From assembly GCA_964016885.1 (NCBI GenBank), contig OZ024746.1, positions 50,530,001 through 50,594,000 of the forward strand: DNA of 64,000 nucleotides, written 5' to 3'. Numbering within the stretch: position 1 is the first letter of the stretch; the number at the start of each line of letters is the position of its first letter. Positions 1 through 53,374 of this stretch are shown here, in pieces. The translations under genes and the position numbers were made by a program. Under the pieces are notes generated by a model. It was not told where the DNA came from, did not search any database, and saw nothing but the letters and a program-made list of their open reading frames with translations. The DNA comes from Eledone cirrhosa (taxonomy: Eukaryota).

Positions 1-3000
1 AAAAGTTTGATTTTTTTTCGATTTCGAAAATTGATATATATTTTGTATTTTTCAAAAATTTTTCAACGTGCCGAAACACAATGTAAAAACGCATATTTTT
101 GAAAAAAAACATTTTTTCCAAATACTGTGTAAAATGATCAATTTGTGAAAAACCGATTTCGAAAATTGATATATATTTTGTATTTTTCAAAAATTTTGCG
201 TGTCGAAACACAATGTATAAACGCATTTTTTTAAAAAAAAAACATTTTTTCTAAAAATGATCAATTTGTGAAAAACCGAAAAAAATCAATTTTAGAAATC
301 AGAAGTAAATATTTCGAAATGTATAAAAAAATTGATTATTTTAGGTTTTTCACAAATTGATTATTTTAAAATTGTTTTTTTTCAGAAAAGATTGATTTTT
401 TTTCTTTCGAAATATATACTTTCTGATTTCGAAAATTGATATATATTTTGTATTTTTCAAAAATTTTTCAACGTGTCGAAACACAATGTATAAACGCATT
501 ATTTTGAAAAAAAACATTTTTTCCAAATATTGTGTAAAGTGATCAATTTGTGAAAAACCTAAAAATATCAATTTTAGATACCAGAAGTAAATATTTCGAA
601 ATGTATAAAAAAATTGATTATTTTAGGTTTTTCACAAATTGATCATTTTACACAGTATTTCGAAAAATTGTTTTTTTTCAAAAAAGTTTGATTTTTTTTC
701 GATTACGAAAATTGATATATATTTTGTATTTTTCAAAAATTTTTCAACGTGTCGAAACACAATGTATAAACGCATTATTTTGAAAAAAAACATTTTTTCC
801 AAATATTGTGTAAAGTGATCAATTTGTGAAAAACCTAAAAATATCAATTTTAGATACCAGAAGTAAATATTTCGAAATGTATAAAAAAATTGATTATTTT
901 AGGTTTTTCACAAATTGATCATTTTACACAGTATTTCGAAAAATTGTTTTTTTTCAAAAAAGTTTGATTTCTTTTCGATTACGAAAATTGATATATATTT
1001 TGTATTTTTCAAAAATTTTTCAACGTGTCGAAACACAATGTATAAACGCATTATTTTGAAAAAAAACATTTTTTCCAAATATTGTGTAAAGTGATCAATT
1101 TGTGAAAAACCTAAAAATATCAATTTTAGATACAGAAGTAAATATTTCGAAATGTATAAAAAAATTGATTATTTTAGGTTTTTCACAAATTCATCATTTT
1201 ACACAGTATTTCGAAAAATTGTTTTTTTTCAAAAAAGTTTGATTTTTTTTCGATTTCGAAAATTGATATATATTTTGTATTTTTCAAAAATTTTTCAACG
1301 TGTCGAAACAATGTATAAACGCATTTTTTTAAAAAAAAACATTTTTTCTAAATACTGTGTAAAATGATCAATTTGTGAAAAACCGAAAAAAATCAATTTT
1401 AGAAATCTGAAGTAAATATTTCGAAATGTATAAAAAATTGATTATTTTAGGTTTTTCACAAATTGATCATTTTACACAGTATTTCGAAAAATTGTTTTTT
1501 TTCAGAAAAGTTTGATTTATTTTCGATTTAGAAAATTGATATATATTTTGTATTTTTCAAAAGTTTTTCAACGTGTCGAAACACAATGTATAAACGCATT
1601 TTTTTAAAAAAAAACATTTTTTCTAAATATTGTGTAAAGTGATCGATTTGTGAAAAACCCAAAAAAATCAATTTTAGATATCAGAAGTAAATATTTCGAA
1701 ATGTATAAAAAAATTAATTATTTTAGGTTTTTCACAAATTGATCATTTTACACAGTATTTCGAAAAATTGTTTTTTTTCAAAAAAGTGATTTTTTTTCGA
1801 TTTCGAAAATTGATATGTATTTTGTATTTTTCAATAATTTTTCAAAGTGTCGAAACACGATAAAAAACATTTTTTCTAAAAATGATCAATTTGTGAAAAA
1901 CCGAAAAAAATCAATTTTAGAAATCAGAAGTAAATATTTCGAAATGTATAAAAAAATTGATTATTTTAGGTTTTTCACAAATTGATCATTTTACGCAGTA
2001 TTTCGAAAAATTGTTTTTTTTCAAAAAAGTGATTTTTTTTCGATTTCGAAAATTGATATGTATTTTGTATTTTTCAAAAATTTTTCAACGTGTCGAAAAA
2101 CAACGTATAAACGCATTTTTAAAAAAAAAAACATTTTTTCTAAATATTGTGTAAAGGTGAAAAACCTAAAAAAATCAATTTTAGATATCAGAAGTAAATA
2201 TTTCGAAATGTATAAAAAAATTGATTATTTTAGGTTTTTCACAGTACTTCGAAAAATTGTTTTTTTTCAAAAAAGTTTGATTTTTTTTCGATTTCGAAAA
2301 TTGATATATATTCTGTATTTTTCAAAAATTTTTCAACGTGTCGAAACACAATGTAAAAACGCATTTTTTAAAAAAAAAAACATTTTTTCTAAAAATGATC
2401 AATTTGTGAAAAACCGAAAAAAATCAATTTTAGAAATCAGAAGTAAATATTTCGAAATGTATAAAAAAATTGATTATTTTAGGTTTTTCACAAATTGATC
2501 ATTTTACACAGTATTTCGAAAAATTGTTTTTTTTCAGAAAAGATTGATTTTTTTCTTTCGAAATATATACTTTCTGATTTCGAAAATTGATATATATCTT
2601 GTATTTTTCAAAAATTTTTCAACGTGTCGAAACACAATGTATAAACGCATTATTTTGAAAAAAAACATTTTTTCCAAATATTGTGTAAAGTGATCAATTT
2701 GTGAAAAACCTAAAAATATCAATTTTAGATACCAGAACTAAATATTTCGAAATGTATAAAAAAATTGATTATTTTAGGTTTTTCACAAATTGATCATTTT
2801 ACACAGTATTTCGAAAAATTGTTTTTTTTCAAAAAAGTTTGATTTTTTTTCGATTTCGAAAATTGATATATATTTTGTATTTTTCAAAAATTTTTCAGCG
2901 TGCCGAAACACAATGTAAAAACGCATATTTTTGAAAAAAAACATTTTTTCCAAATACTGTGTAAAATGATCAATTTGTGAAAAACCGATTTCGAAAATTG

Positions 3001-6000
3001 ATATATATTTTGTATTTTTCAAAAATTTTGCGTGTCGAAACACGATGTATAAACGCATTTTTTTAAAAAAAAAACATTTTTTCTAAAAATGATCAATTTG
3101 TGAAAAACCGAAAAAAATCAATTTTAGAAATCAGAAGTAAATATTCCGAAATGTATAAAAAAATTGATTATTTTAGGTTTTTCACAAATTGATTATTTTA
3201 CACAGTATTTCGAAAAATTGTTTTTTTTCAGAAAAGATTGATTTTTTTCTTTCGAAATATATACTTTCTGATTTCGAAAATTGATATATATTTTGTATTT
3301 TTCAAAAATTTTTCAACGTGTCGAAACACAATGTATAAACGCATTATTTTGAAAAAAAACATTTTTTCCAAATATTGTGTAAAGTGATCAATTTGTGAAA
3401 AACCTAAAAATATCAATTTTAGATACCAGAACTAAATATTTCGAAATGTATAAAAAAATTGATTATTTTAGGTTTTTCACAAATTGATCATTTTACACAG
3501 TATTTCGAAAAATTGTTTTTTTTTAAAAAAGTTTGATTTTTTTTCGATTACGAAAATTGATATATATTTTGTATTTTTCAAAAATTTTTCAACGTGTCGA
3601 AACACAATGTATAAACGCATTATTTTGAAAAAAAACATTTTTTCCAAATATTGTGTAAAGTGATCAATTTGTGAAAAACCTAAAAATATCAATTTTAGAT
3701 ACCAGAAGTAAATATTTCGAAATGTATAAAAAAATTGATTATTTTAGGTTTTTCACAAATTGATCATTTTACACAGTATTTCGAAAAATTGTTTTTTTTC
3801 AGAAAAGATTGATTTTTTTTCTTTCGAAATATATACTTTCTGATTTCAAAAATTGATATATATTTTGTATTTTTCAAAAATTTTTCAACGTGTCGAAACA
3901 CAATGCATAAACGCATTTTTTTTAAAAAAAACATTTTTTCTAAATACTTTGTAAAATGATCGATTTGTGAAAAACCCCAAAAAATAAATTTTAGATATCA
4001 GAAGTAAATATTTCGATGAATAAACGCATTTTTTTGAAAAAAAACATTTCATCCAAAAAGTGATCAATTTATGAAAAACCTAAAAATATCAATTTTAGAA
4101 ATCAGAAGTAAATATTTCGAAAAGTATAAAAAAATTGATTATTTTAGGTTTTTCACAAAATGATCAATTTGTGCAAAACCAAGATATCAGAAGTAAATAT
4201 TTCGAAATGTATAAAAAAATTGATTATTTTAGGTTTTTCACAAATTGATCATTTTACACAGTATTTCGAAAAATTGTTTTTTTTCAAAAAAGTTTGATTT
4301 TTTTTCGATTTCGAAAATTGATATATATTTTGTATTTTTCAAAAATTTTTCAGCGTGCCGAAACACAATGTAAAAACGCATATTTTTGAAAAAAAACATT
4401 TTTTCCAAATACTGTGTAAAATGATCAATTTGTGAAAAACCGATTTCGAAAATTGATATATATTTTGTATTTTTCAAAAATTTTGCGTGTCGAAACACGA
4501 TGTATAAACGCATTTTTTAAAAAAAAAAACATTTTTTCTAAAAGTGATCAATTTGTGAAAAACCGAAAAAAATCAATTTTAGAAATCAGAAGTAAATATT
4601 TCGAAATGTATAAAAAAATTGATTATTTTAGGTTTTTCACAAATTGATTATTTTACACAGTATTTCGAAAAATTGTTTTTTTTCAGAAAAGATTGATTTT
4701 TTTCTTTCGAAATATATACTTTCTGATTTCGAAAATTGATATATATTTTGTATTTTTCAAAAATTTTTCAACGTGTCGAAACACAATGTATAAACGCATT
4801 ATTTTGGAAAAAAACATTTTTTCCAAATATTGTGTAAAGTGATCAATTTGTGAAAAACCTAAAAATATCAATTTTAGATACCAGAACTAAATATTTCGAA
4901 ATGTATAAAAAAATTGATTATTTTAGGTTTTTCACAAATTGATCATTTTACACAGTATTTCGAAAAATTGTTTTTTTTTAAAAAAGTTTGATTTTTTTTC
5001 GATTACGAAAATTGATATATATTTTGTATTTTTCAAAAATTTTTCAACGTGTCGAAACACAATGTATAAACGCATTATTTTGAAAAAAAACATTTTTTCC
5101 AAATATTGTGTAAAGTGATCAATTTGTGAAAAACCTAAAAATATCAATTTTAGATACCAGAAGTAAATATTTCGAAATGTATAAAAAAATTGATTATTTT
5201 AGGTTTTTCACAAATTGATCATTTTACGCAGTATTTCGAAAAATTGTTTTTTTTCAAAAAAGTTTGATTTTTTTTCGATTTCGAAAATCGATATATATTC
5301 TGTATTTTTCAAAAATTTTTCAACGTGTAAAAACGCATATTTTTGAAAAAAAACATTTTTTCCAAATACTGTGTAAAATGATCAATTTGTGAAAAACCGA
5401 AAAAAATCAATTTTAGAAATCAGAAGTAAATATTTTGAAATGTATAAAAATATTGATTATTTTAGGTTTTTCACAAATTGATCATTTTACACAGTATTTC
5501 GAAAAATTGTTTTTTTTCAGAAAAGATTGATTTTTTTTCTTTCGAAATATATACTTTCTGATTTCAAAAATTGATATATATTTTGTATTTTTCAAAAATT
5601 TTTCAACGTGTCGAAACACAATGCATAAACGCATTTTTTAAAAAAAAACATTTTTTCCAAATACTTTGTAAAATGATCGATTTGTGAAAAACCCCAAAAA
5701 ATCAATTTTAGATATCAGAAGTAAATATTTCTAAATGTATAAAAAAATTGATTATTTTAGGTTTTTCACAAATTGATCATTTTACACAGTATTTCGAAAA
5801 ATTGTTTTTTTTCAAAAAAGTCATTTTTTTTCGATTTCGAAAATTGATATGTATTTTGTATTTTTCAAAAATTTTTCAACGTGTCGAAACACAACGTATA
5901 AACGCATTTTTAAAAAAAAAAACATTTTTTCTAAATATTGTGTAAAGGTGAAAAACCTAAAAAAATCAATTTTAGATAACAGAAGTAAATATTTCGAAAT

Positions 6001-9000
6001 GTATAAAAAAATTGATTATTTTAGGTTTTTCACAAATTGATCATTTTACACAGTATTTCGAAAAATTGTTTTTTTTCAAAAAAGATTGATTTTTTTTCTT
6101 TCGAAATGTATACCTTCTGATTTCGAAAATTGACATATATTTTGTATTTTTCAAAAGTTTTTCAACGTGTCGAAACACAATGCATAAACGCATTATTTTG
6201 AAAAAAAACATTTTTTCCAAATATTGTGTAAAGTGATCAATTTGTGAAAAACCTAAAAATATCAATTTTAGATACCAGAAGTAAATATTTCGAAATGTAT
6301 AAAAAAATTGATTATTTTAGGTTTTTCACAAATTGATCATTTTACACAGTATTTCGAAAAATTGTTTTTTTTCAAAAAAGTCATTTTTTTTCGATTTCGA
6401 AAATTGATATGTATTTTGTATTTTTCAAAAATTTTTCAACGTGTCGAAACACAACGTATAAACGCATTTTTAAAAAAAAAAACATTTTTACTAAATATTG
6501 TGTAAAGGTGAAAAACCTAAAAAAATCAATTTTAGATATCAGAAGTAAATATTTCGAAATGTATAAAAAAATTGATTATTTTAGGTTTTTCACAAATTCA
6601 TCATTTTACACAGTATTTCGAAAAATTGTTTTTTTTCAGAAAAGATTGATTTTTTTTCTTTCGAAATATATACTTTCTGATTTCAAAAATTGATATATAT
6701 TTTGTATTTTTCAAAAATTTTTCAACGTGTCGAAACACAATGCATAAACGCATTTTTTTTAAAAAAAACATTTTTTCTAAATACTTTGTAAAATGATCGA
6801 TTTGTGAAAAACCCCAAAAAATAAATTTTAGATATCAGAAGTAAATATTTCGATGAATAAACGCATTTTTTTGAAAAAAAACATTTCATCCAAAAAGTGA
6901 TCAATTTATGAAAAACCTAAAAATATCAATTTTAGAAATCAGAAGTAAATATTTCGAAATGTATAAAAAATTGATTATTTTAGGTTTTTCACAAATTGAT
7001 CATTTTACACAGTATTTCGAAAAATTGTTTTTTTTCAGAAAAGTTTGATTTATTTTCGATTTAGAAAATTGATATATATTTTGTATTTTTCAAAAGTTTT
7101 TCAACGTGTCGAAACACAATGTATAAACGCATTTTTTTAAAAAAAAACATTTTTTCTAAATATTGTGTAAAATGATCAATTTGTGAAAAACCGAAAAAAA
7201 TCAATTTTAGAAATCAGAAGTAAATATTTCGAAATGTATAAAAAATTGATTATTTTAGGTTTTTCACAAATTGATCATTTTACACAGTATTTCGAAAAAT
7301 TGTTTTTTTTCAGAAAAGTTTGATTTATTTTCGATTTAGAAAATTGATATATATTTTGTATTTTTCAAAAGTTTTTCAACGTGTCGAAACACAATGTATA
7401 AACGCATTTTTTTAAAAAAAAACATTTTTTCTAAATATTGTGTAAAGTGATCGATTTGTGAAAAACCCAGAAAAATCAATTTTAGATATCAGAAGTAAAT
7501 ATTTCGAAATGTATAAAAAAATTAATTATTTTAGGTTTTTCACAAATTGATCATTTTACACAGTATTTCGAAAAGTTGTTCTTTTTCAAAAAAGTGATTT
7601 TTTTTCGATTTCGAAAATTGATATGTATTTTGTATTTTTCAATAATTTTTCAAAGTGTCGAAACACGATAAAAAACATTTTTTCTAAAAATGATCAATTT
7701 GTGAAAAACCGAAAAAAATCAATTTTAGAAATCAGAAGTAAATATTTCGAAATGTATAAAAATATTGATTATTTTAGGTTTTTCACAAATTGATCATTTT
7801 ACACAGTATTTCGAAAAATTGTTTTTTTCAAAAAAGATTGATTTTTTTTCTTTCGAAATATATACTTTCTGATATCGAAAATTGATATATATTTTGTATT
7901 TTTCAAAAATTTTTCAACGTGTCGAAACACAATGCATAAACGCATTTTTTAAAAAAAAACATTTTTCTAAATACTTTGTAAAATGATCGATTTGTGAAAA
8001 ACCGAAAAAAATCAATTTTAGAAATCTGAAGTAAATATTTCGAAATGTATAAAAAATTGATTATTTTAGGTTTTTCACAAATTGATCATTTTACACAGTA
8101 TTTCGAAAAATTGTTTTTTTTCAGAAAAGTTTGATTTATTTTCGATTTCGAAAATTGATATATATTTTGTATTTTTCAAAAATTTTTCAACGTGCCGAAA
8201 CACAATGTAAAAACGCATATTTTTGAAAAAAAACATTTTTTCCAAATACTGTGTAAAATGATCAATTTGTGAAAAACCGATTTCGAAAATTGATATATAT
8301 TTTGTATTTTTCAAAAATTTTGCGTGTCGAAACACGATGTATAAACGCATTTTTTTAAAAAAAAAACATTTTTTCTAAAAATGATCAATTTGTGAAAAAC
8401 CGAAAAAAATCAATTTTAGAAATCAGAAGTAAATATTTCGAAATGTATAAAAAAATTGATTATTTTAGGTTTTTCACAAATTGATTATTTTAAAATTGTT
8501 TTTTTTCAGAAAAGATTGATTTTTTTTCTTTCGAAATATATACTTTCTGATTTCGAAAATTGATATATATTTTGTATTTTTCAAAAATTTTTCAACGTGT
8601 CGAAACACAATGTATAAACGAATTATTTTGAAAAAAAACATTTTTTCCAAATATTGTGTAAAGTGATCAATTTGTGAAAAACCTAAAAATATCAATTTTA
8701 GATACCAGAAGTAAATATTTCGAAATGTATAAAAAAATTGATTATTTTAGGTTTTTCACAAATTGATCATTTTACACAGTATTTCGAAAAATTGTTTTTT
8801 TTCAAAAAAGTTTGATTTTTTTTCGATTACGAAAATTGATATATGTTTTGTATTTTTCAAAAATTTTTCAACGTGTCGAAACACAATGTATAAACGCATT
8901 ATTTTGAAAAAAAACATTTTTTCCAAATATTGTGTAAAGTGATCAATTTGTGAAAAACCTAAAAATATCAATTTTAGATACCAGAAGTAAATATTTCGAA

Positions 9001-12000
9001 ATGTATAAAAAAATTGATTATTTTAGGTTTTTCACAAATTCATCATTTTACACAGTATTTCGAAAAATTGTTTTTTTTCAAAAAAGTTTGATTTTTTTTC
9101 GATTTCGAAAATTGATATATATTTTGTATTTTTCAAAAATTTTTCAACGTGTCGAAACAATGTATAAACGCATTTTTTTTAAAAAAAAACATTTTTTCTA
9201 AATACTGTGTAAAATGATCAATTTGTGAAAAACCGAAAAAAATCAATTTTAGAAATCTGAAGTAAATATTTCGAAATGTATAAAAAATTGATTATTTTAG
9301 GTTTTTCACAAATTGATCATTTTACACAGTATTTCGAAAAATTGTTTTTTTTCAGAAAAGTTTGATTTATTTTCGATTTAGAAAATTGATATATATTTTG
9401 TATTTTTCAAAAGTTTTTCAACGTGTCGAAACACAATGTATAAACGCATTTTTTTAAAAAAAAACATTTTTTCTAGATATTGTGTAAAGTGATCGATTTG
9501 TGAAAAACCCAAAAAAATCAATTTTAGATATCAGAAGTAGATATTTCGAAATGTATAAAAAAATTAATTATTTTAGGTTTTTCACAAATTGGTCATTTTA
9601 CACAGTATTTCGAAAAATTGTTTTTTTTCAAAAAAGTGATTTTTTTTCGATTTCGAAAATTGATATGTATTTTGTATTTTTCAAAAATTTTTCAACGTGT
9701 CGAAAAACAACGTATAAACGCATTTTTAAAAAAAAAAACATTTTTTCTAAATATTGTGTAAAGGTGAAAAACCTAAAAAAATCAATTTTAGATATCAGAA
9801 GTAAATATTTCGAAATGTATAAAAAAATTGATTATTTTAGGTTTTTCACAGTACTTCGAAAAATTGTTTTTTTTCAAAAAAGTTTGATTTTTTTTCGATT
9901 TCGAAAATTGATATATATTCTGTATTTTTCAAAAATTTTTCAACGTGTCGAAACACAATGTAAAAACGCATATTTTTGAAAAAAAACATTTTTTCCAAAT
10001 ACTGTGTAAAATGATCAATTTGTGAAAAACCGAAAAAAATCAATTTTAGAAATCAGAAGTAAATATTTTGAAATGTATAAAAATATTGATTATTTTAGGT
10101 TTTTCACAAATTGATCATTTTACACAGTATTTCGAAAAATTGTTTTTTTTCAGAAAAGATTGATTTTTTTCTTTCGAAATATATACTTTCTGATTTCGAA
10201 AATTGATATATATTTTGTATTTTTCAAAAATTTTTCAACGTGTCGAAACACAATGTATAAACGCATTATTTTGAAAAAAAACATTTTTTCCAAATATTGT
10301 GTAAAGTGATCAATTTGTGAAAAACCTAAAAATATCAATTTTAGATACCAGAAGTAAATATTTCGAAATGTATAAAAAAATTGATTATTTTAGGTTTTTC
10401 ACAAATTGATCATTTTACACAGTATTTCGAAAAATTGTTTTTTTTCAGAAAAGATTGATTTTTTTTCTTTCGAAATATATACTTTCTGATTTCAAAAATT
10501 GATATATATTTTGTATTTTTCAAAAATTTTTCAACGTGTCGAAACACAATGCATAAACGCATTTTTTTTAAAAAAAACATTTTTTCTAAATACTTTGTAA
10601 AATGATCGATTTGTGAAAAACCCCAAAAAATAAATTTTAGATATCAGAAGTAAATATTTCGATGAATAAACGCATTTTTTTGAAAAAAAACATTTCATCC
10701 AAAAAGTGATCAATTTATGAAAAACCTAAAAATATCAATTTTAGAAATCAGAAGTAAATATTTCGAAAAGTATAAAAAAATTGATTATTTTAGGTTTTTC
10801 ACAAAATGATCAATTTGTGCAAAACCAAAAAAAATCAATTTTAGATATCAGAAGTAAATATTTCGAAATGTATAAAAAAATTGATTATTTTAGGTTTTTC
10901 ACAAATTGATCATTTTACACAGTATTTCGAAAAATTGTTTTTTTTCAAAAAAGTTTGATTTTTTTTCGATTTCGAAAATTGATATATATTTTGTATTTTT
11001 CAAAAATTTTTCAGCGTGCCGAAACACAATGTAAAAACGCATATTTTTGAAAAAAAACATTTTTTCCAAATACTGTGTAAAATGATCAATTTGTGAAAAA
11101 CCGATTTCGAAAATTGATATTGATTATTTTAGGTTTTTCACAGTACTTCGAAAAATCGTTTTTTTTCAAAAAAGTTTGATTTTTTTTCGATTTCGAAAAT
11201 TGATATATATTCTGTATTTTTCAAAAATTTTTCAACGTGTCGAAACACAATGTAAAAACGCATATTTTTGAAAAAAAACATTTTTTCCAAATACTGTGTA
11301 AAATGATCAATTTGTGAAAAACCGAAAAAAATCAATTTTAGAAATCAGAAGTAAATATTTTGAAATGTATAAAAATATTGATTATTTTAGGTTTTTCACA
11401 AATTGATCATTTTACACAGTATTTCGAAAAATTGTTTTTTTTCAGAAAAGATTGATTTTTTTCTTTCGAAATATATACTTTCTGATTTCGAAAATTGATA
11501 TATATTTTGTATTTTTCAAAAATTTTTCAACGTGTCGAAACACAATGTATAAACGCATTATTTTGAAAAAAAACATTTTTTCCAAATATTGTGTAAAGTG
11601 ATCAATTTGTGAAAAACCTAAAAATATCAATTTTAGATACCAGAAGTAAATATTTCGAAATGTATAAAAAAATTGATTATTTTAGGTTTTTCACAAATTG
11701 ATCATTTTACACAGTATTTCGAAAAATTGTTTTTTTTCAGAAAAGATTGATTTTTTTTCTTTCGAAATATATACTTTCTGATTTCAAAAATTGATATATA
11801 TTTTGTATTTTTCAAAAATTTTTCAACGTGTCGAAACACAATGCATAAACGCATTTTTTTAAAAAAAAACATTTTTTCTAAATACTTTGTAAAATGATCG
11901 ATTTGTGAAAAACCCCAAAAAATAAATTTTAGATATCAGAAGTAAATATTTCGATGAATAAACGCATTTTTTTGAAAAAAAACATTTCATCCAAAAAGTG

Positions 12001-15000
12001 ATCAATTTATGAAAAACCTAAAAATATCAATTTTAGAAATCAGAAGTAAATATTTCGAAAAGTATAAAAAAATTGATTATTTTAGGTTTTTCACAAAATG
12101 ATCAATTTGTGCAAAACCAAAAAAAATCAATTTTAGATATCAGAAGTAAATATTTCGAAATGTATAAAAAAATTGATTATTTTAGGTTTTTCACAAATTG
12201 ATCATTTTACACAGTATTTCGAAAAATTGTTTTTTTTCAAAAAAGTTTGATTTTTTTTCGATTTCGAAAATTGATATATATTTTGTATTTTTCAAAAATT
12301 TTTCAGCGTGCCGAAACACAATGTAAAAACGCATATTTTTGAAAAAAAACATTTTTTCCAAATACTGTGTAAAATGATCAATTTGTGAAAAACCGATTTC
12401 GAAAATTGATATATATTTTGTATTTTTCAAAAATTTTGCGTGTCGAAACACGATGTATAAACGCATTTTTTTAAAAAAAAAACATTTTTTCTAAAAATGA
12501 TCAATTTGTGAAAAACCGAAAAAAATCAATTTTAGAAATCAGAAGTAAATATTTCGAAATGTATAAAAAAATTGATTATTTTAGGTTTTTCACAAATTGA
12601 TTATTTTACACAGTATTTCGAAAAATTGTTTTTTTTCAGAAAAGATTGATTTTTTTCTTTCGAAATATATACTTTCTGATTTCGAAAATTGATATATATT
12701 TTGTATTTTTCAAAAATTTTTCAACGTGTCGAAACACAATGTATAAACGCATTATTTTGAAAAAAAACATTTTTTCCAAATATTGTGTAAAGTGATCAAT
12801 TTGTGAAAAACCTAAAAATATCAATTTTAGATACCAGAACTAAATATTTCGAAATGTATAAAAAAATTGATTATTTTAGGTTTTTCACAAATTGATCATT
12901 TTACACAGTATTTCGAAAAATTGTTTTTTTTTAAAAAAGTTTGATTTTTTTTCGATTACGAAAATTGATATATATTTTGTATTTTTCAAAAATTTTTCAA
13001 CGTGTCGAAACACAATGTATAAACGCATTATTTTGAAAAAAAACATTTTTTCCAAATATTGTGTAAAGTGATCAATTTGTGAAAAACCTAAAAATATCAA
13101 TTTTAGATACCAGAAGTAAATATTTCGAAATGTATAAAAAAATTGATTATTTTAGGTTTTTCACAAATTGATCATTTTACGCAGTATTTCGAAAAATTGT
13201 TTTTTTTCAAAAAAGTTTGATTTTTTTTCGATTTCGAAAATCGATATATATTCTGTATTTTTCAAAAATTTTTCAACGTGTCGAAACACAATGTAAAAAC
13301 GCATATTTTTGAAAAAAAACATTTTTTCCAAATACTGTGTAAAATGATCAATTTGTGAAAAACCGAAAAAAATCAATTTTAGAAATCAGAAGTAAATATT
13401 TTGAAATGTATAAAAATATTGATTATTTTAGGTTTTTCACAAATTGATCATTTTACACAGTATTTCGAAAAATTGTTTTTTTTCAGAAAAGATTGATTTT
13501 TTTTCTTTCGAAATATATACTTTCTGATTTCAAAAATTGATATATATTTTGTATTTTTCAAAAATTTTTCAACGTGTCGAAACACAATACATAAACGCAT
13601 TTTTTAAAAAAAAACATTTTTTCCAAATACTTTGTAAAATGATCGATTTGTGAAAAACCCCAAAAAATCAATTTTAGATATCAGAAGTAAATATTTCTAA
13701 ATGTATAAAAAAATTGATTATTTTAGGTTTTTCACAAATTGATCATTTTACACAGTATTTCGAAAAATTGTTTTTTTTCAAAAAAGTGATTTTTTTTCGA
13801 TTTCGAAAATTGATATGTATTTTGTATTTTTCAAAAATTTTTCAACGTGTCGAAACACAACGTATAAACGCATTTTTAAAAAAAAAAACATTTTTTCTAA
13901 ATATTGTGTAAAGGTGAAAAACCTAAAAAAATCAATTTTAGATAACAGAAGTAAATATTTCGAAATGTATAAAAAAATTGATTATTTTAGGTTTTTCACA
14001 AATTGATCATTTTACACAGTATTTCGAAAAATTGTTTTTTTTCAAAAAAGATTGATTTTTTTTCTTTCGAAATGTATACCTTCTGATTTCGAAAATTGAC
14101 ATATATTTTGTATTTTTCAAAAGTTTTTCAACGTGTCGAAACACAATGCATAAACGCATTATTTTGAAAAAAAACATTTTTTCCAAATATTGTGTAAAGT
14201 GATCAATTTGTGAAAAACCTAAAAATATCAATTTTAGATACCAGAAGTAAATATTTCGAAATGTATAAAAAAATTGATTATTTTAGGTTTTTCACAAATT
14301 GATCATTTTACACAGTATTTCGAAAAATTGTTTTTTTTCAAAAAAGTCATTTTTTTTCGATTTCGAAAATTGATATGTATTTTGTATTTTTCAAAAATTT
14401 TTCAACGTGTCGAAACACAACGTATAAACGCATTTTTTAAAAAAAAAACATTTTTACTAAATATTGTGTAAAGGTGAAAAACCTAAAAAAATCAATTTTA
14501 GATAACAGAAGTAAATATTTCGAAATGTATAAAAAAATTGATTATTTTAGGTTTTTCACAAATTCATCATTTTACACAGTATTTCGAAAAATTGTTTTTT
14601 TTCAGAAAAGATTGATTTTTTTTCTTTCGAAATATATACTTTCTGATTTCAAAAATTGATATATATTTTGTATTTTTCAAAAATTTTTCAACGTGTCGAA
14701 ACACAATGCATAAACGCATTTTTTTTAAAAAAAACATTTTTTCTAAATACTTTGTAAAATGATCGATTTGTGAAAAACCCCAAAAAATAAATTTTAGATA
14801 TCAGAAGTAAATATTTCGATGAATAAACGCATTTTTTTGAAAAAAAACATTTCATCCAAAAAGTGATCAATTTATGAAAAACCTAAAAATATCAATTTTA
14901 GAAATCAGAAGTAAATATTTCGAAAAGTATAAAAAAATTGATTATTTTAGGTTTTTCACAAAATGATCAATTTGTGCAAAACCAAAAAAAATCAATTTTA

Positions 15001-47748: not shown

Positions 47749-48013
47749 ATGCCAGATAGTTGAACGTTCGAAAGTATATACTTTCCTTATGAAAATTAAC
47801 GGCTGAGCAGCCTAATTTGCATATCGAGTGAGCTAAGTCGGTCAGGCATACCGAAAACGATTCCTGTGTCAGTGTTGAGCAAAAAGGTGACGTGGTTGCC
47901 TTAACACCGTACGGCATAAAAATTCAGGCTGTTCAGTTTGTTTACAAACGAACAAAGCGGCGTTATAATAAGCGTCTGCTAAACTGATACGTGCATATAT
48001 GTATGTGTACCTG

Positions 48014-48065
<52 letters not shown>

Positions 48066-48496
48066 TGCTACTGTACGTCTGTATACATATATGTATGTAC
48101 GTATACACACATACTTACATTTAAGTAAGTGCCGTACTAAGAGTGAGAAATGAAATTTCGTTTTCATTTTTTTTCAACTCATCGTTTTCGGTATGCCTGA
48201 CCGACTTAGCTCACTCGATATGCAAATTAGGCTGCTCAGCCGTTAATTTTCATAAGGAAAGTATATACTTTCGAACGTTCAACTATTTGGCAGATGGGTA
48301 TACGGTGCTGATGATAGCTAACAAGCTTGAAACTAGTACATCGTTCCTGTGTCAGTGTTGAGCAAAAAGGTGACGTGGTTGCCTTAACACCGTACGGCAT
48401 AAAAATTCAGGCTGTTCAGTTTGTTTACAAACAAACAAAGCGGCGTTATAATAAGCGTCTGCTAAACTGATACGTGCATATATGTATGTGTACCTG

Positions 48497-48548
<52 letters not shown>

Positions 48549-48661
48549 TGCTACTGTACGTCTGTATACATATATGTATGTACGTATACACACATACTTA
48601 CATTTAAGTAAGTGCCGTACTAAGAGTGAGAAATGAAATTTCGTTTTCATTTTTTTTCAAC
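47749..48661 (+). mobile_element. Second locus of the 474-bp family (483-bp variant, ~1.65 units) preceded by an inverted ~113-bp piece; hammerhead at ~48302-48345
   Basis: 47749-47861 is the reverse complement of 48181-48293; the direct-repeat period is 483 (ORFs at 47869 and 48352). Confidence 0.9.
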
Positions 48662-48801
48662 TATATATATATATATATGAATATAGACATAGAATATTCG
48701 AAAATATTCTGTATGTTTATAATAAACATTTTGAAGACCTAATCGCTATAGAATAGAATACGTCACGTATTACAATTAGATTCTCGATAAAAGCAAGGGA
48801 A

Positions 48802-48844
48802 GTAATCTACGCGTTTCATTCTCGTTAGAAATCATCAGGACTAC
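48802..48844 (-). ncRNA. Minimal type I hammerhead, 310-bp family (also 49112-49154 and 49422-49464 on the minus strand)
   Basis: Reverse complement of the motif at 49777-49819. Confidence 0.88.
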
Positions 48845-49776
48845 ATATCCAGTGCTTTTATCGAGAATGACACAGCTAGAGACTTATAGAATACTTAGCT
48901 GTGTACAGGAACTGGTTTGAAAGAGCGGTTGCCGGTCCGGCAGAAATTAGAAATTGGAATAAATGCTCTGAAATAGCGATATATATGTGAATATAGACAT
49001 AGAATATTCGAAAATATTCTGTATGTTTATAATAAACATTTTGAAGACCTAATCGCTATAGAATAGAATACGTCACGTATTACAATTAGATTCTCGATAA
49101 AAGCAAGGGAAGTAATCTACGCGTTTCATTCTCGTTAGAAATCATCAGGACTACATATCCAGTGCTTTTATCGAGAATGACACAGCTAGAGACTTATAGA
49201 ATACTTAGCTGTGTACAGGAACTGGTTTGAAAGAGCGGTTGCCGGTCCGGCAGAAATTAGAAATTGGAATAAATGCTCTGAAATAGCGATATATATGTGA
49301 ATATAGACATAGAATATTCGAAAATATTCTGTATGTTTATAATAAACATTTTGAAGACCTAATCGCTATAGAATAGAATACGTCACGTATTACAATTAGA
49401 TTCTCGATAAAAGCAAGGGAAGTAATCTACGCGTTTCATTCTCGTTAGAAATCATCAGGACTACATATCCAGTGCTTTTATCGAGAATGACACAGCTAGA
49501 GACTTATAGAATACTTAGCTGTGTACAGGAACTGGTTTGAAAGAGCGGTTGCCGGTCCGGCAGAAATTAGAAATTGGAATAAATGCTCTGAAATAGCGAT
49601 ATATATGTGAATATAGACATAGAATATTCGAAAATATTCTGTATGTTTATAATAAACATTTTGAAGACCTAATCGCTATAGAATACCGGCAACCGCTCTT
49701 TCAAACCAGTTCCTGTACACAGCTAAGTATTCTATAAGTCTCTAGCTGTGTCATTCTCGATAAAAGCACTGGATAT

Positions 49777-49819
49777 GTAGTCCTGATGATTTCTAACGAG
49801 AATGAAACGCGTAGATTAC
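49777..49819 (+). ncRNA. Minimal type I hammerhead, 310-bp family (also 50087-50129 and 50397-50439)
   Basis: GUAGUC-CUGAUGA-U[UUCU-AACG-AGAA]U-GAA-ACGCGU-A^GAUUAC. Stem III is the palindrome ACGCGU; predicted cleavage is after 49813. Confidence 0.9.
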
Positions 49820-50963
49820 TTCCCTTGCTTTTATCGAGAATCTAATTGTAATACGTGACGTATTCTATTCTATAGCGATTAGGTCTTCAAAATGTTTATT
49901 ATAAACATACAGAATATTTTCGAATATTCTATGTCTATATTCACATATATATCGCTATTTCAGAGCATTTATTCCAATTTCTAATTTCTGCCGGACCGGC
50001 AACCGCTCTTTCAAACCAGTTCCTGTACACAGCTAAGTATTCTATAAGTCTCTAGCTGTGTCATTCTCGATAAAAGCACTGGATATGTAGTCCTGATGAT
50101 TTCTAACGAGAATGAAACGCGTAGATTACTTCCCTTGCTTTTATCGAGAATCTAATTGTAATACGTGACGTATTCTATTCTATAGCGATTAGGTCTTCAA
50201 AATGTTTATTATAAACATACAGAATATTTTCGAATATTCTATGTCTATATTCACATATATATCGCTATTTCAGAGCATTTATTCCAATTTCTAATTTCTG
50301 CCGGACCGGCAACCGCTCTTTCAAACCAGTTCCTGTACACAGCTAAGTATTCTATAAGTCTCTAGCTGTGTCATTCTCAATAAAAGCACTGGATATGTAG
50401 TCCTGATGATTTCTAACGAGAATGAAACGCGTAGATTACTTCCCTTGCTTTTATCGAGAATCTAATTGTAATACGTGACGTATTCTATTCTATAGCGATT
50501 AGGTCTTCAAAATGTTTATTATAAACATACAGAATATTTTCGAATATTCTATGTCTATATTCACATATATATCGCTATTTCAGAGCATTTATTCCAATAT
50601 ATATATATATATATATAAATGACTTATATTTGTATGTGTATGTGTATAGACACACATGTATTCAACATTAACACTGCCTTCACAAAATTCTATTCTGTCT
50701 CACTCTGCTGCAGCTTATATCAAGCAGTCTTACTTGTTATTCATGTTATTGTCAGTTGGTATTTTGCCAGCTATGTGTTCAAATCCTGCCACTTATCTGT
50801 CTACCAGAATTTAGAAAATTAAGACCCAGTTTTTTGCTGTTTCATCAGAGTCACATCAGAGCCAAGGATACCATGCTTCCATTGGCTTTTCCATTGCTGA
50901 TACTATCTGCTAGCTGCTACTACTGTCATATGACACTGTCCTCCTTTACAGGATTTGAACTCA

Positions 50964-52231: not shown

Positions 52232-52484
52232 TTGATAACCTTGACCGACCAGTCTGTCGGGCGCCAATCGTCGCCACTGGTCACAGCACGTCGTGCTGTT
52301 TTAGCCATAAGATAATGCCATCCCACTGGCTGGGCGGGCGTGCCGGTACTCATTTCTACAGCTGAGTAAACTGGAGCAACGTGAAATAAAGTGCCTTGCT
52401 CAAGGAAACAACACATCACACGGTCCGAGAATTGAACTCACAACCTTTCGAATGCAAGCCCAATGCTTTAACCACCTAAGCCTT
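52232..52484 (-). mobile_element. tRNA/CORE-like SINE with the same head as 40999-41341 but a different tail
   Basis: 52349-52482 matches the SINE head and core; 52232-52348 is unrelated to the RTE-type tail. Confidence 0.75.
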
Positions 52485-53031: not shown

Positions 53032-53374
53032 CATCATCATCATCATTTCATTTTACGTCCGCTTTTTCCCTGCTTGCAAGGGTGGGACGGGAACTGATTC
53101 TGGCTTGATTTCTACAGCTGGATGCCCTTCCTAATACCAACCTCATTTACAGTGAGTGCTGGGTGCTTTTTTGCCGTGGCACCTCCACGACCACTTTGCA
53201 GTGGAATGATATGGCCCCCAGTCCCTATCATCTCATTTCTACAGCTGAGTAAACTGGAGCAATGTGAAATAAAGTGTCTTGCTCAAGGAAACAACGCATT
53301 ACCCAGTCTGAGAATTGAACTCACAACCTTTCGATTGCAAGGCCAATGCTCTAACCACTAAGCCATGTGCCTTC
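53032..53374 (-). mobile_element. tRNA-derived SINE, second full copy of the 40999-41341 family
   Basis: Colinear and highly similar to 40999-41341. Confidence 0.88.

Follow-up and report, generated by a model that had tools for sequence, protein, structure and literature searches.

Non-LTR retrozymes of animals were defined as a class by Cervera and de la Pena (2020; PMC7229834), who proposed that PLEs make tandem cDNA on a circular template. Li et al. (2026; bioRxiv 10.64898/2026.07.22.740005) described, mainly for vertebrates, the co-occurrence of retrozymes with PLEs and a pLTR phylogeny, reported homology of retrozymes to the pseudo-LTR of an autonomous PLE, and likewise proposed mobilisation by PLEs. 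By word counts, inverted arrays are absent from the main texts of both papers (Supplementary Figure S9 of PMC7229834 may bear on the point), and the main text of Li et al. does not treat orientation and tails.

Insertions of endonuclease-bearing PLEs carry an inverted 5'-truncated copy, often a 30-40-bp tail at one end, and lie in (TA)n targets, which are typical of the Hydra, Neptune and Naiad clades; the 2021 clade survey that records this called the mechanism behind the tandem, inverted and tailed structure still undefined (Craig et al. 2021, PMC8557442). One purified PLE protein, PAc (Poseidon of Anolis), cuts and extends both strands of an AT-rich target, starting at two neighbouring internal positions that agree with the genomic tail; the protein is predicted to be a dimer and its ribozyme is dispensable for insertion (Frangieh et al. 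2024, PMC11167929). The parts of that work drawn on here do not show that each DNA end uses its own site, that a single RNA serves the two ends or that the template is circular. Our literature search, which covered subscription journals thinly, returned nothing on retrozyme arrays that are inverted and tailed, nor on twin priming by PLEs.

Two proposals have thus far had no direct support, namely retrozyme mobility through circular RNA copied by PLE enzymes, and a mechanism for PLE insertion structure. In the 310-bp family described here, an element and a footprint that are each already known come together in a strict form that makes both mechanisms testable. The kind of element being already known, the gain is mechanistic: the family supplies a large, young and countable data set together with a 310-nt substrate for in vitro work. 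Two-ended rolling insertion into double-strand breaks would also interest RNA-templated genome writing.

A head-to-head array of 310-bp hammerhead units

The window, a 64,000-nt stretch of Eledone cirrhosa DNA (contig OZ024746.1, positions 50,530,001 to 50,594,000), contains an array that a sequence-only reading had described as six hammerheads, three minus and three plus, each with an ACGCGT palindrome, in near-identical and divergently inverted 310-bp units with (TA)n on both sides. All six cores were located at 310-bp spacing, and a minus arm and a plus arm with a period of 310 bp stand back to back. The left arm has no mismatches and the right arm one; the left-hand border is (TA)8 and the right-hand border about (AT)9. 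The features are as follows.

48662..48677, no strand: left half of the (TA)n target, (TA)8, which doubles as the end of a neighbouring 474/483-bp hammerhead element
48678..49685, minus strand: left arm, 3.25 units, 0 mismatches; truncated 5' at unit base 53, its short end (RNA-sense 3') at unit base 130
48808..48838, minus strand: type I hammerhead core 1
49118..49148, minus strand: type I hammerhead core 2
49428..49458, minus strand: type I hammerhead core 3
49557-49684: non-mirrored centre, 128 nt
49685, no strand: head-to-head junction of the two 5'-truncated arms, at unit bases 53 and 182 with one base in common
49685..50598, plus strand: right arm, 2.95 units, 1 mismatch; truncated 5' at unit base 182, its tailed end (3') at unit base 165
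49753..49841, plus strand: 16-bp helix prolonging helix I, strands 49753-49768 / 49826-49841
49783..49813, plus strand: type I hammerhead core 4, with a predicted GUA cleavage site after 49813
49814..50123, plus strand: cleavage-to-cleavage monomer of 310 nt, the predicted circular RNA, which sets the unit numbering 1-310
50093..50123, plus strand: type I hammerhead core 5
50403..50433, plus strand: type I hammerhead core 6, in a unit that carries G>A at 50379
50564..50598, plus strand: PLE-type tail, 35 bp, unit bases 131-165, at the right outer end only
50599..50617, no strand: right half of the (TA)n target

Units are numbered from 49814, the first base past the predicted GUA cleavage site. 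The two arms are not exact mirrors, since 888 bp of complementary sequence flank the 128-nt unpaired centre and the outer ends stop at different unit positions (130 versus 165). Of the earlier idea that the arms could form a cruciform or about 0.9 kb of dsRNA, the complementarity stands; a cruciform is unlikely because the centre is unpaired, and dsRNA would require read-through of the entire array. The array has no coding capacity, its longest stop-free frame being 59 codons and its longest frame from an ATG about 30, and no LTR pair, there being no unique body that separates repeats.

The unit length of 310 bp and a GC content of 0.34 across 49001-50000 lie inside the retrozyme range (150-450 bp, GC under 45-50%). 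With the published animal non-LTR retrozymes the family shares tandem, AT-rich units of 150-450 bp with one type I hammerhead each and no ORF, as well as thousands of copies and the presence of PLEs in the same genome. In the window, each of the consecutive tandem units has a hammerhead, and the element is dispersed and multicopy in a genome that holds Hydra-type and other GIY-YIG PLEs. The proposal that this is a retrozyme is upheld by the tandem type I hammerhead units without an ORF, by covariation with an older sister family and by at least 4,226 exact cores, and the assignment of the element to the animal non-LTR retrozymes, a known kind of element, is supported on these sequence features. 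The family differs from published retrozymes in that most insertions are head-to-head, a strict two-end rule holds and each insertion has one haplotype.

Three other classes were rejected. The array has no RT plus GIY-YIG ORF, as an autonomous PLE would; plant LTR retrozymes have a type III hammerhead in LTRs and a 4-bp target duplication, where the window has type I topology and tandem units; and viroid-like replicating circles exist outside host DNA and carry a ribozyme in both polarities, where each unit here has one polarity only.

The ribozyme and the fold of the monomer

The type I hammerhead core (CUGANGA / GAAA / NUH) is intact in the 310-bp unit. Helix I comprises 6 bp with pairing probabilities of 0.86-1.0 and, past an internal loop, is continued by the long helix that had been proposed as perfect over 16 bp; the strands listed above are indeed exact reverse complements, but G>A at 50379 breaks one pair in the third plus unit. 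Two further hairpins and the ACGCGT palindrome were likewise found in place. The 4-bp helix II, at whose base stands a U-U pair, has a probability of 0.15 in the unconstrained circle, and a fold that leaves the hammerhead core open lies just 1.5 kcal/mol above the minimum. Helix III closes merely one C-G pair over a 2-nt loop, within the palindrome ACGCGU, and is therefore effectively a dimer helix; the intermolecular helix III that two copies could form is a 6-bp duplex of -9.5 kcal/mol. Type I hammerheads with a helix III of 1-2 bp and a palindromic 2-4-nt loop are active as dimers, and this is the form of most animal type I hammerheads (PMC4209133). In vitro, one of nine Xenopus retrozyme dimers cut (Li, Clavereau and Pollet 2026, bioRxiv 10.64898/2026.07.22.740005). 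Rfam at its gathering threshold called no hammerhead in the 310-bp unit.

Folded as a circle, the 310-nt monomer reaches -67.8 kcal/mol (z -4.6 against 100 dinucleotide shuffles) in a branched fold, with no rod. The unit had been predicted to be highly self-paired; its self-pairing is moderate, at 58% of bases versus 55% in shuffles.

Covariation was scored over the window copy and 15 of the 22 sister copies found by core pattern, the core being decayed in 8 of the 15. Among 30 helix pairs 18 change on both sides, including 10 of 16 in the long helix; none of 500 shuffles matched this and slid controls gave 4-9. This is support rather than proof, because the structure was modelled on the window copy itself and sequences that are related may outdo shuffles anyway. 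Within the family, 8 of 19 fixed variant types sit within about 38 nt around the ribozyme (unit bases 276-3), all at variable positions (N7, loop 2, the helix II base and helix I wobble pairs), with no invariant core base affected. A Pol III promoter, judged by eye, was set aside, as internal T runs speak against it.

The sister family, of about 320 bp, has the same tail core (2,138 exact hits). Many of its copies (L134-L163, L033:4182-4510) have the decayed core TTGATAA and have yet seemingly spread, which would mean mobility without an active ribozyme.

Two different ends in all 53 two-arm loci

Genome-wide copies, which the sequence-only reading had proposed to count, were obtained by pattern searches of the 3.0-Gb assembly. 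The figure of at least 4,226 exact cores represents only one haplotype class. On the forward strand 611 short ends and 772 tailed ends were found, corresponding to about 1,200-1,550 insertions if both strands are alike. A sample of 62 loci was assembled from C1:1-105.8 Mb, being all that the core and end lists gave there: 10 were among the first 100 core matches listed (to 53 Mb) and 52 came from the end lists, unpaired ends included, so that loci with decayed ends or other cores may be missed.

The head-to-head two-arm layout is present in 52 of the 62 loci. The other ten have one arm, eight of them short-ended and two tailed, one of these at an assembly gap. When the window array is added to the 52, each of the resulting 53 two-arm loci pairs a short end with a tailed one, and none has two alike. 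Short ends fall at unit bases 125-139 and tailed ends at 163-172, with modal positions of 130 and 165; the short end of one locus (L088) is taken as 139, its computed value of 105 being an effect of a variant, and some values of 125-128 likewise stem from variants. TA-rich microsatellite flanks both sides of all 53 loci, inside which no target duplication is readable. The short-end site adjoins the unit's own CATATATAT and could pair with the target, whereas the tailed site has just 1-3 matching bases.

The inversion in the window, which had been read as a local peculiarity, is therefore the family's usual form of insertion, and the insertion footprint of the family is the PLE footprint of an inverted 5'-truncated copy, a 30-40-bp tail and a (TA)n target. 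PLE insertions, as described in the parts of Craig et al. 2021 (PMC8557442) and Arkhipova et al. 2013 (PMC3846280) used here, share the inverted 5'-truncated copy, the one-end tail, the (TA)n and the lack of a readable target duplication. Unlike them, the 310-bp family has no RT-endonuclease ORF, both its arms are multi-unit concatemers, and in 53 of 53 loci a tail is found at one end and at one only, where in those sources it is 'optional'. The start sites of PAc, in the account of PMC11167929, are without target homology, in contrast to the short site of the 310-bp family, which can pair with (TA)n.

One haplotype per insertion

Haplotypes were derived from unit-by-unit variant calls in the 43 loci with at least 300 unit bases covered per arm, the 10 shorter loci being excluded. 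Both arms have the same haplotype in 41 of these 43 loci, against a mean of 7.3 and a maximum of 17 in 10,000 shuffled pairings. Separate loci differ, and 17 haplotypes were counted. The two mismatching loci are L082 and L056, the latter with just one variant covered. Nine variants are each private to one two-arm locus, where all units of the two arms carry them.

Over 176,672 bp there are 78 singletons, or 0.14 per unit, and this divergence of 0.044% bears out the suggestion that the insertion is recent. A bottleneck through a monomer predicts a newly fixed variant in about 7 of 53 loci, and 9 were seen. Singletons mirrored at the same distance from the outer end in both arms should number up to about 22 if one multi-unit RNA had been read; one was found (L060). 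Both expectations are soft, because source arrays are assumed to be as diverged as the present ones and singletons are assumed to be real; some singletons may be errors of the assembly, and the expected numbers are the weaker for it.

Some loci do not fit a pure single-monomer template: L082 is mosaic for 276G (2 of 6 units in one arm, 7 of 7 in the other), L084 is mosaic for the same variant (7 of 8 units), and L060 has the mirrored singleton. Two sister circles from one source array would mimic the one-circle haplotype result.

5' ends and junctions

The 5' truncations fall at the cleavage site in 2 of 106 cases, where 6.8 were expected, and the lack of a pile-up there argues that the template was not a cut linear monomer. 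Junctions are blunt or overlapping in 37 of the 53 loci and contain filler in 16. In one locus (L077) the 272-nt centre is GC-rich foreign filler between the arms, and in two others (L041, L034) the junction has extra short inverted or duplicated unit pieces, which suggests template switches. L046 and L084 have an identical junction (unit bases 167/256) with different haplotypes.

In L1 twin priming a single RNA is primed by the two DNA ends and the product is an inversion with microhomology, the first cDNA stopping where the second began. The 310-bp family differs in that the 5' ends of its tailed arms are not clustered at unit base 120-140 (4 of 53), so that a collision of this type finds no support here.

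Proposed mechanism and alternatives

Taking the unit, the head-to-head layout, the (TA)n target, the one short and one 35-bp-longer end and the single haplotype of each insertion as observed, we consider it probable that the window array is a single young retrozyme insertion, made by a PLE enzyme that primed both ends of a cut (TA)n on one circular monomer RNA, a template to which the haplotypes point. In such a scheme a tandem array would be transcribed, and neighbouring hammerheads would pair via their palindromic helix III and release 310-nt monomers, which a host ligase would close; a lone 310-nt circle would be protected because it has no partner ribozyme. The PLE enzyme, probably a dimer, would cut both (TA)n strands. 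Of the two DNA ends, one would then prime at unit base 130-139, where the target could pair with CAUAUAUAU of the RNA, and the second at 163-172. Both polymerases would travel round the circle by strand displacement, making more or fewer turns from case to case, and the two cDNA ends would finally be joined through short microhomology or filler. Against this scheme weigh the ten one-arm loci among the 62, the loci that do not fit a single monomer, the failure to find a PLE with matching ends in the loci sampled, the single cutting dimer among nine from Xenopus and the dispensable ribozyme of PAc. A more far-reaching version, which we find no easier to favour than to doubt, is that one PLE dimer works on a single 310-nt circle at two sites 35 nt apart, that the circular RNA is the real retrotransposition template, and that the same twin priming is the general cause of the inverted-plus-tail structure of PLEs, in place of self-priming.

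A PLE could also have made the same twin insertion on a linear multimer of a homogeneous source array, or on two sister RNAs, with no circle at all. Such a template would yield identical ends and arms that share a haplotype, L082 and L060 resemble the reading of a mixed multimer, the absence of a 5'-end pile-up at the cleavage site also suits uncut RNA, and PAc used unprocessed RNA in vitro (PMC11167929). A linear multimer cannot, however, easily fix a new variant in all units, as the nine locus-private fixed variants and the 17 haplotypes would require, and the single mirrored singleton falls far below the number it predicts, so that we think it unlikely. Fold-back self-priming, in which one primed strand folds and copies itself back as proposed for head-to-head Penelope copies (PMC3846280), would give head-to-head arms of a single haplotype; the unit is rich in hairpins and junction microhomology is enriched (mean 2.2 bases versus 0.75 at random). 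While it suits the head-to-head order, it does not suit the arm lengths or the junctions. A copy-back arm can be no longer than the strand it copies, but either arm may be the longer one here, the tailed arm in 29 of 53 loci and the short-ended arm in 24 (tailed-arm median 1486 bp versus 1048 bp for the short-ended arm, p 0.09, not significant); arm lengths within a locus show no significant correlation (Spearman 0.20, p 0.16) and are within 100 nt of each other in just 6 of 53; and near-palindromic junctions number 6 of 53 against 5.3 expected. The data thus fit priming by two DNA ends better than the self-priming described in that source, and we hold fold-back to be very improbable.

Growth in the manner of a satellite, with a small inverted insertion later enlarged by local tandem amplification and homogenised by gene conversion, has a parallel in the local amplification proposed by Li et al. 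2026 (bioRxiv 10.64898/2026.07.22.740005), and the six arms of 14 units or more do contain nine cases of duplicated variants. In the 61 arms of 3-14 units, by contrast, there are 46 singletons and only 2 partly shared variants, and the window arms, of 3 units each, have one difference. We conclude that ordinary arms were born multi-unit and that only the longest grew later, which makes satellite-like growth a highly improbable origin for the array. That the junction at 49685 is a fold-back artefact of the assembly, a possibility for which one might cite two raw-read runs that gave no read on the unit, is scarcely credible: an artefact cannot yield the different flanks and the ends 35 bp apart that are seen here, the centre is non-mirrored, and 52 other loci follow the same rule with different junctions.

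PLEs of the genome

The genome contains a young PLE family with many intact 758-codon frames (56,330 first-look candidates), for which a frame of 758 aa at L124:2484-4760 served as reference. Pfam gave no family for this frame or for its endonuclease part; its motifs, read against PMC8557442, fit the Hydra clade, a label that we use as putative. The Hydra-type PLE also obeys a two-end rule, with one short and one long end 72 nt apart in all six insertions resolved at both ends (10 loci extended). Like the 310-bp unit it has a (TA)n target and head-to-head arms, and its ribozyme core has 15 plus 9 bases identical to those of the unit and the same U-U pair at the base of helix II. It differs in its 72-nt tail of other sequence, in a long helix III and in the lack of any likeness outside the ribozyme core. 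The difference in the ends means that this PLE shows the mechanism to be active in the genome and does not identify the driver of the 310-bp family.

No autonomous PLE with the ends of the 310-bp unit was found among 30 Hydra-type, 10 extended Hydra, 30 GIY-YIG and 20 extended GIY-YIG loci. Outside the ribozyme core, which resembles that of the Hydra-type PLE, the 310-bp unit had no pLTR match in these 90 PLE loci. Matches in L165, considered as a pLTR partner, proved to be a sister retrozyme inserted nearby.

The 3' region of the Hydra-type PLE holds about 1.5 kb of TG/TA microsatellite before the ribozyme and the true ends (L124, L129, L131-L133, L195, L197). Short non-coding head-to-head copies of its ribozyme end occur at L138, L204 and L205, and the window itself contains a 5'-truncated piece of the endonuclease end (28628-28996, minus strand).

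The unit in public sequencing runs

The 310-bp unit is present in 20 listed public runs, which cover 18 organism codes and 17 studies; no RNA run is among those listed, and six of the 20 were examined more closely. Run X5 is host-like: two unique flank contigs match without difference and the unit occurs in many variant contigs. In X1, X2 and X10 the unit forms one 340-nt contig (310 + 30) that closes into a loop, and X1 and X10 hold host-type repeat pieces at ratios like those of X5. In X17 the unit has a depth of 5 and the only other matches are to CA microsatellite. Two Hi-C runs with the organism code of X1, of about 1.9 Gb each, gave 0 reads on the unit and are uninformative as a test.

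A free RNA circle in other organisms was considered and rejected, given that host-type repeat pieces are present in two of the three runs and that a tandem repeat, once collapsed, forms a closed loop as well. The unit more likely reached other organisms' runs by carry-over or diet, and the closed 340-nt contigs are best read as a repeat that was carried over at low level and collapsed. In surveys of contigs, high-copy host DNA that was probably carried over in this way may pass for 'viroid-like circles'.

Neighbouring elements in the window

The 310-bp array sits in the (TA)n at the plus end of a head-to-head copy of the 474/483-bp hammerhead family (47750-48661), whose minus arm ends at unit base 428 and plus arm at 313, a difference of 115 nt. 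A direct array of 18.6 copies of a 474-bp hammerhead unit lies at 18320-27106; it has one arm only, the palindrome ACTAGT in helix III, an internal TA microsatellite and 17 intact cores. An AT-rich satellite array of 276-bp units, with 264/295-bp variants, occupies 154-17159. Three frames, at 37932-39824 (minus strand), 42001-45362 (plus strand) and 33303-34868 (plus strand), we take by their motifs to be of LINE type, CR1-like and RTE-like. Finally, tRNA-derived SINE copies are found at 53304-53367 (minus strand) and 52410-52480, the first of which matches the Rfam tRNA model at 29.9 bits.
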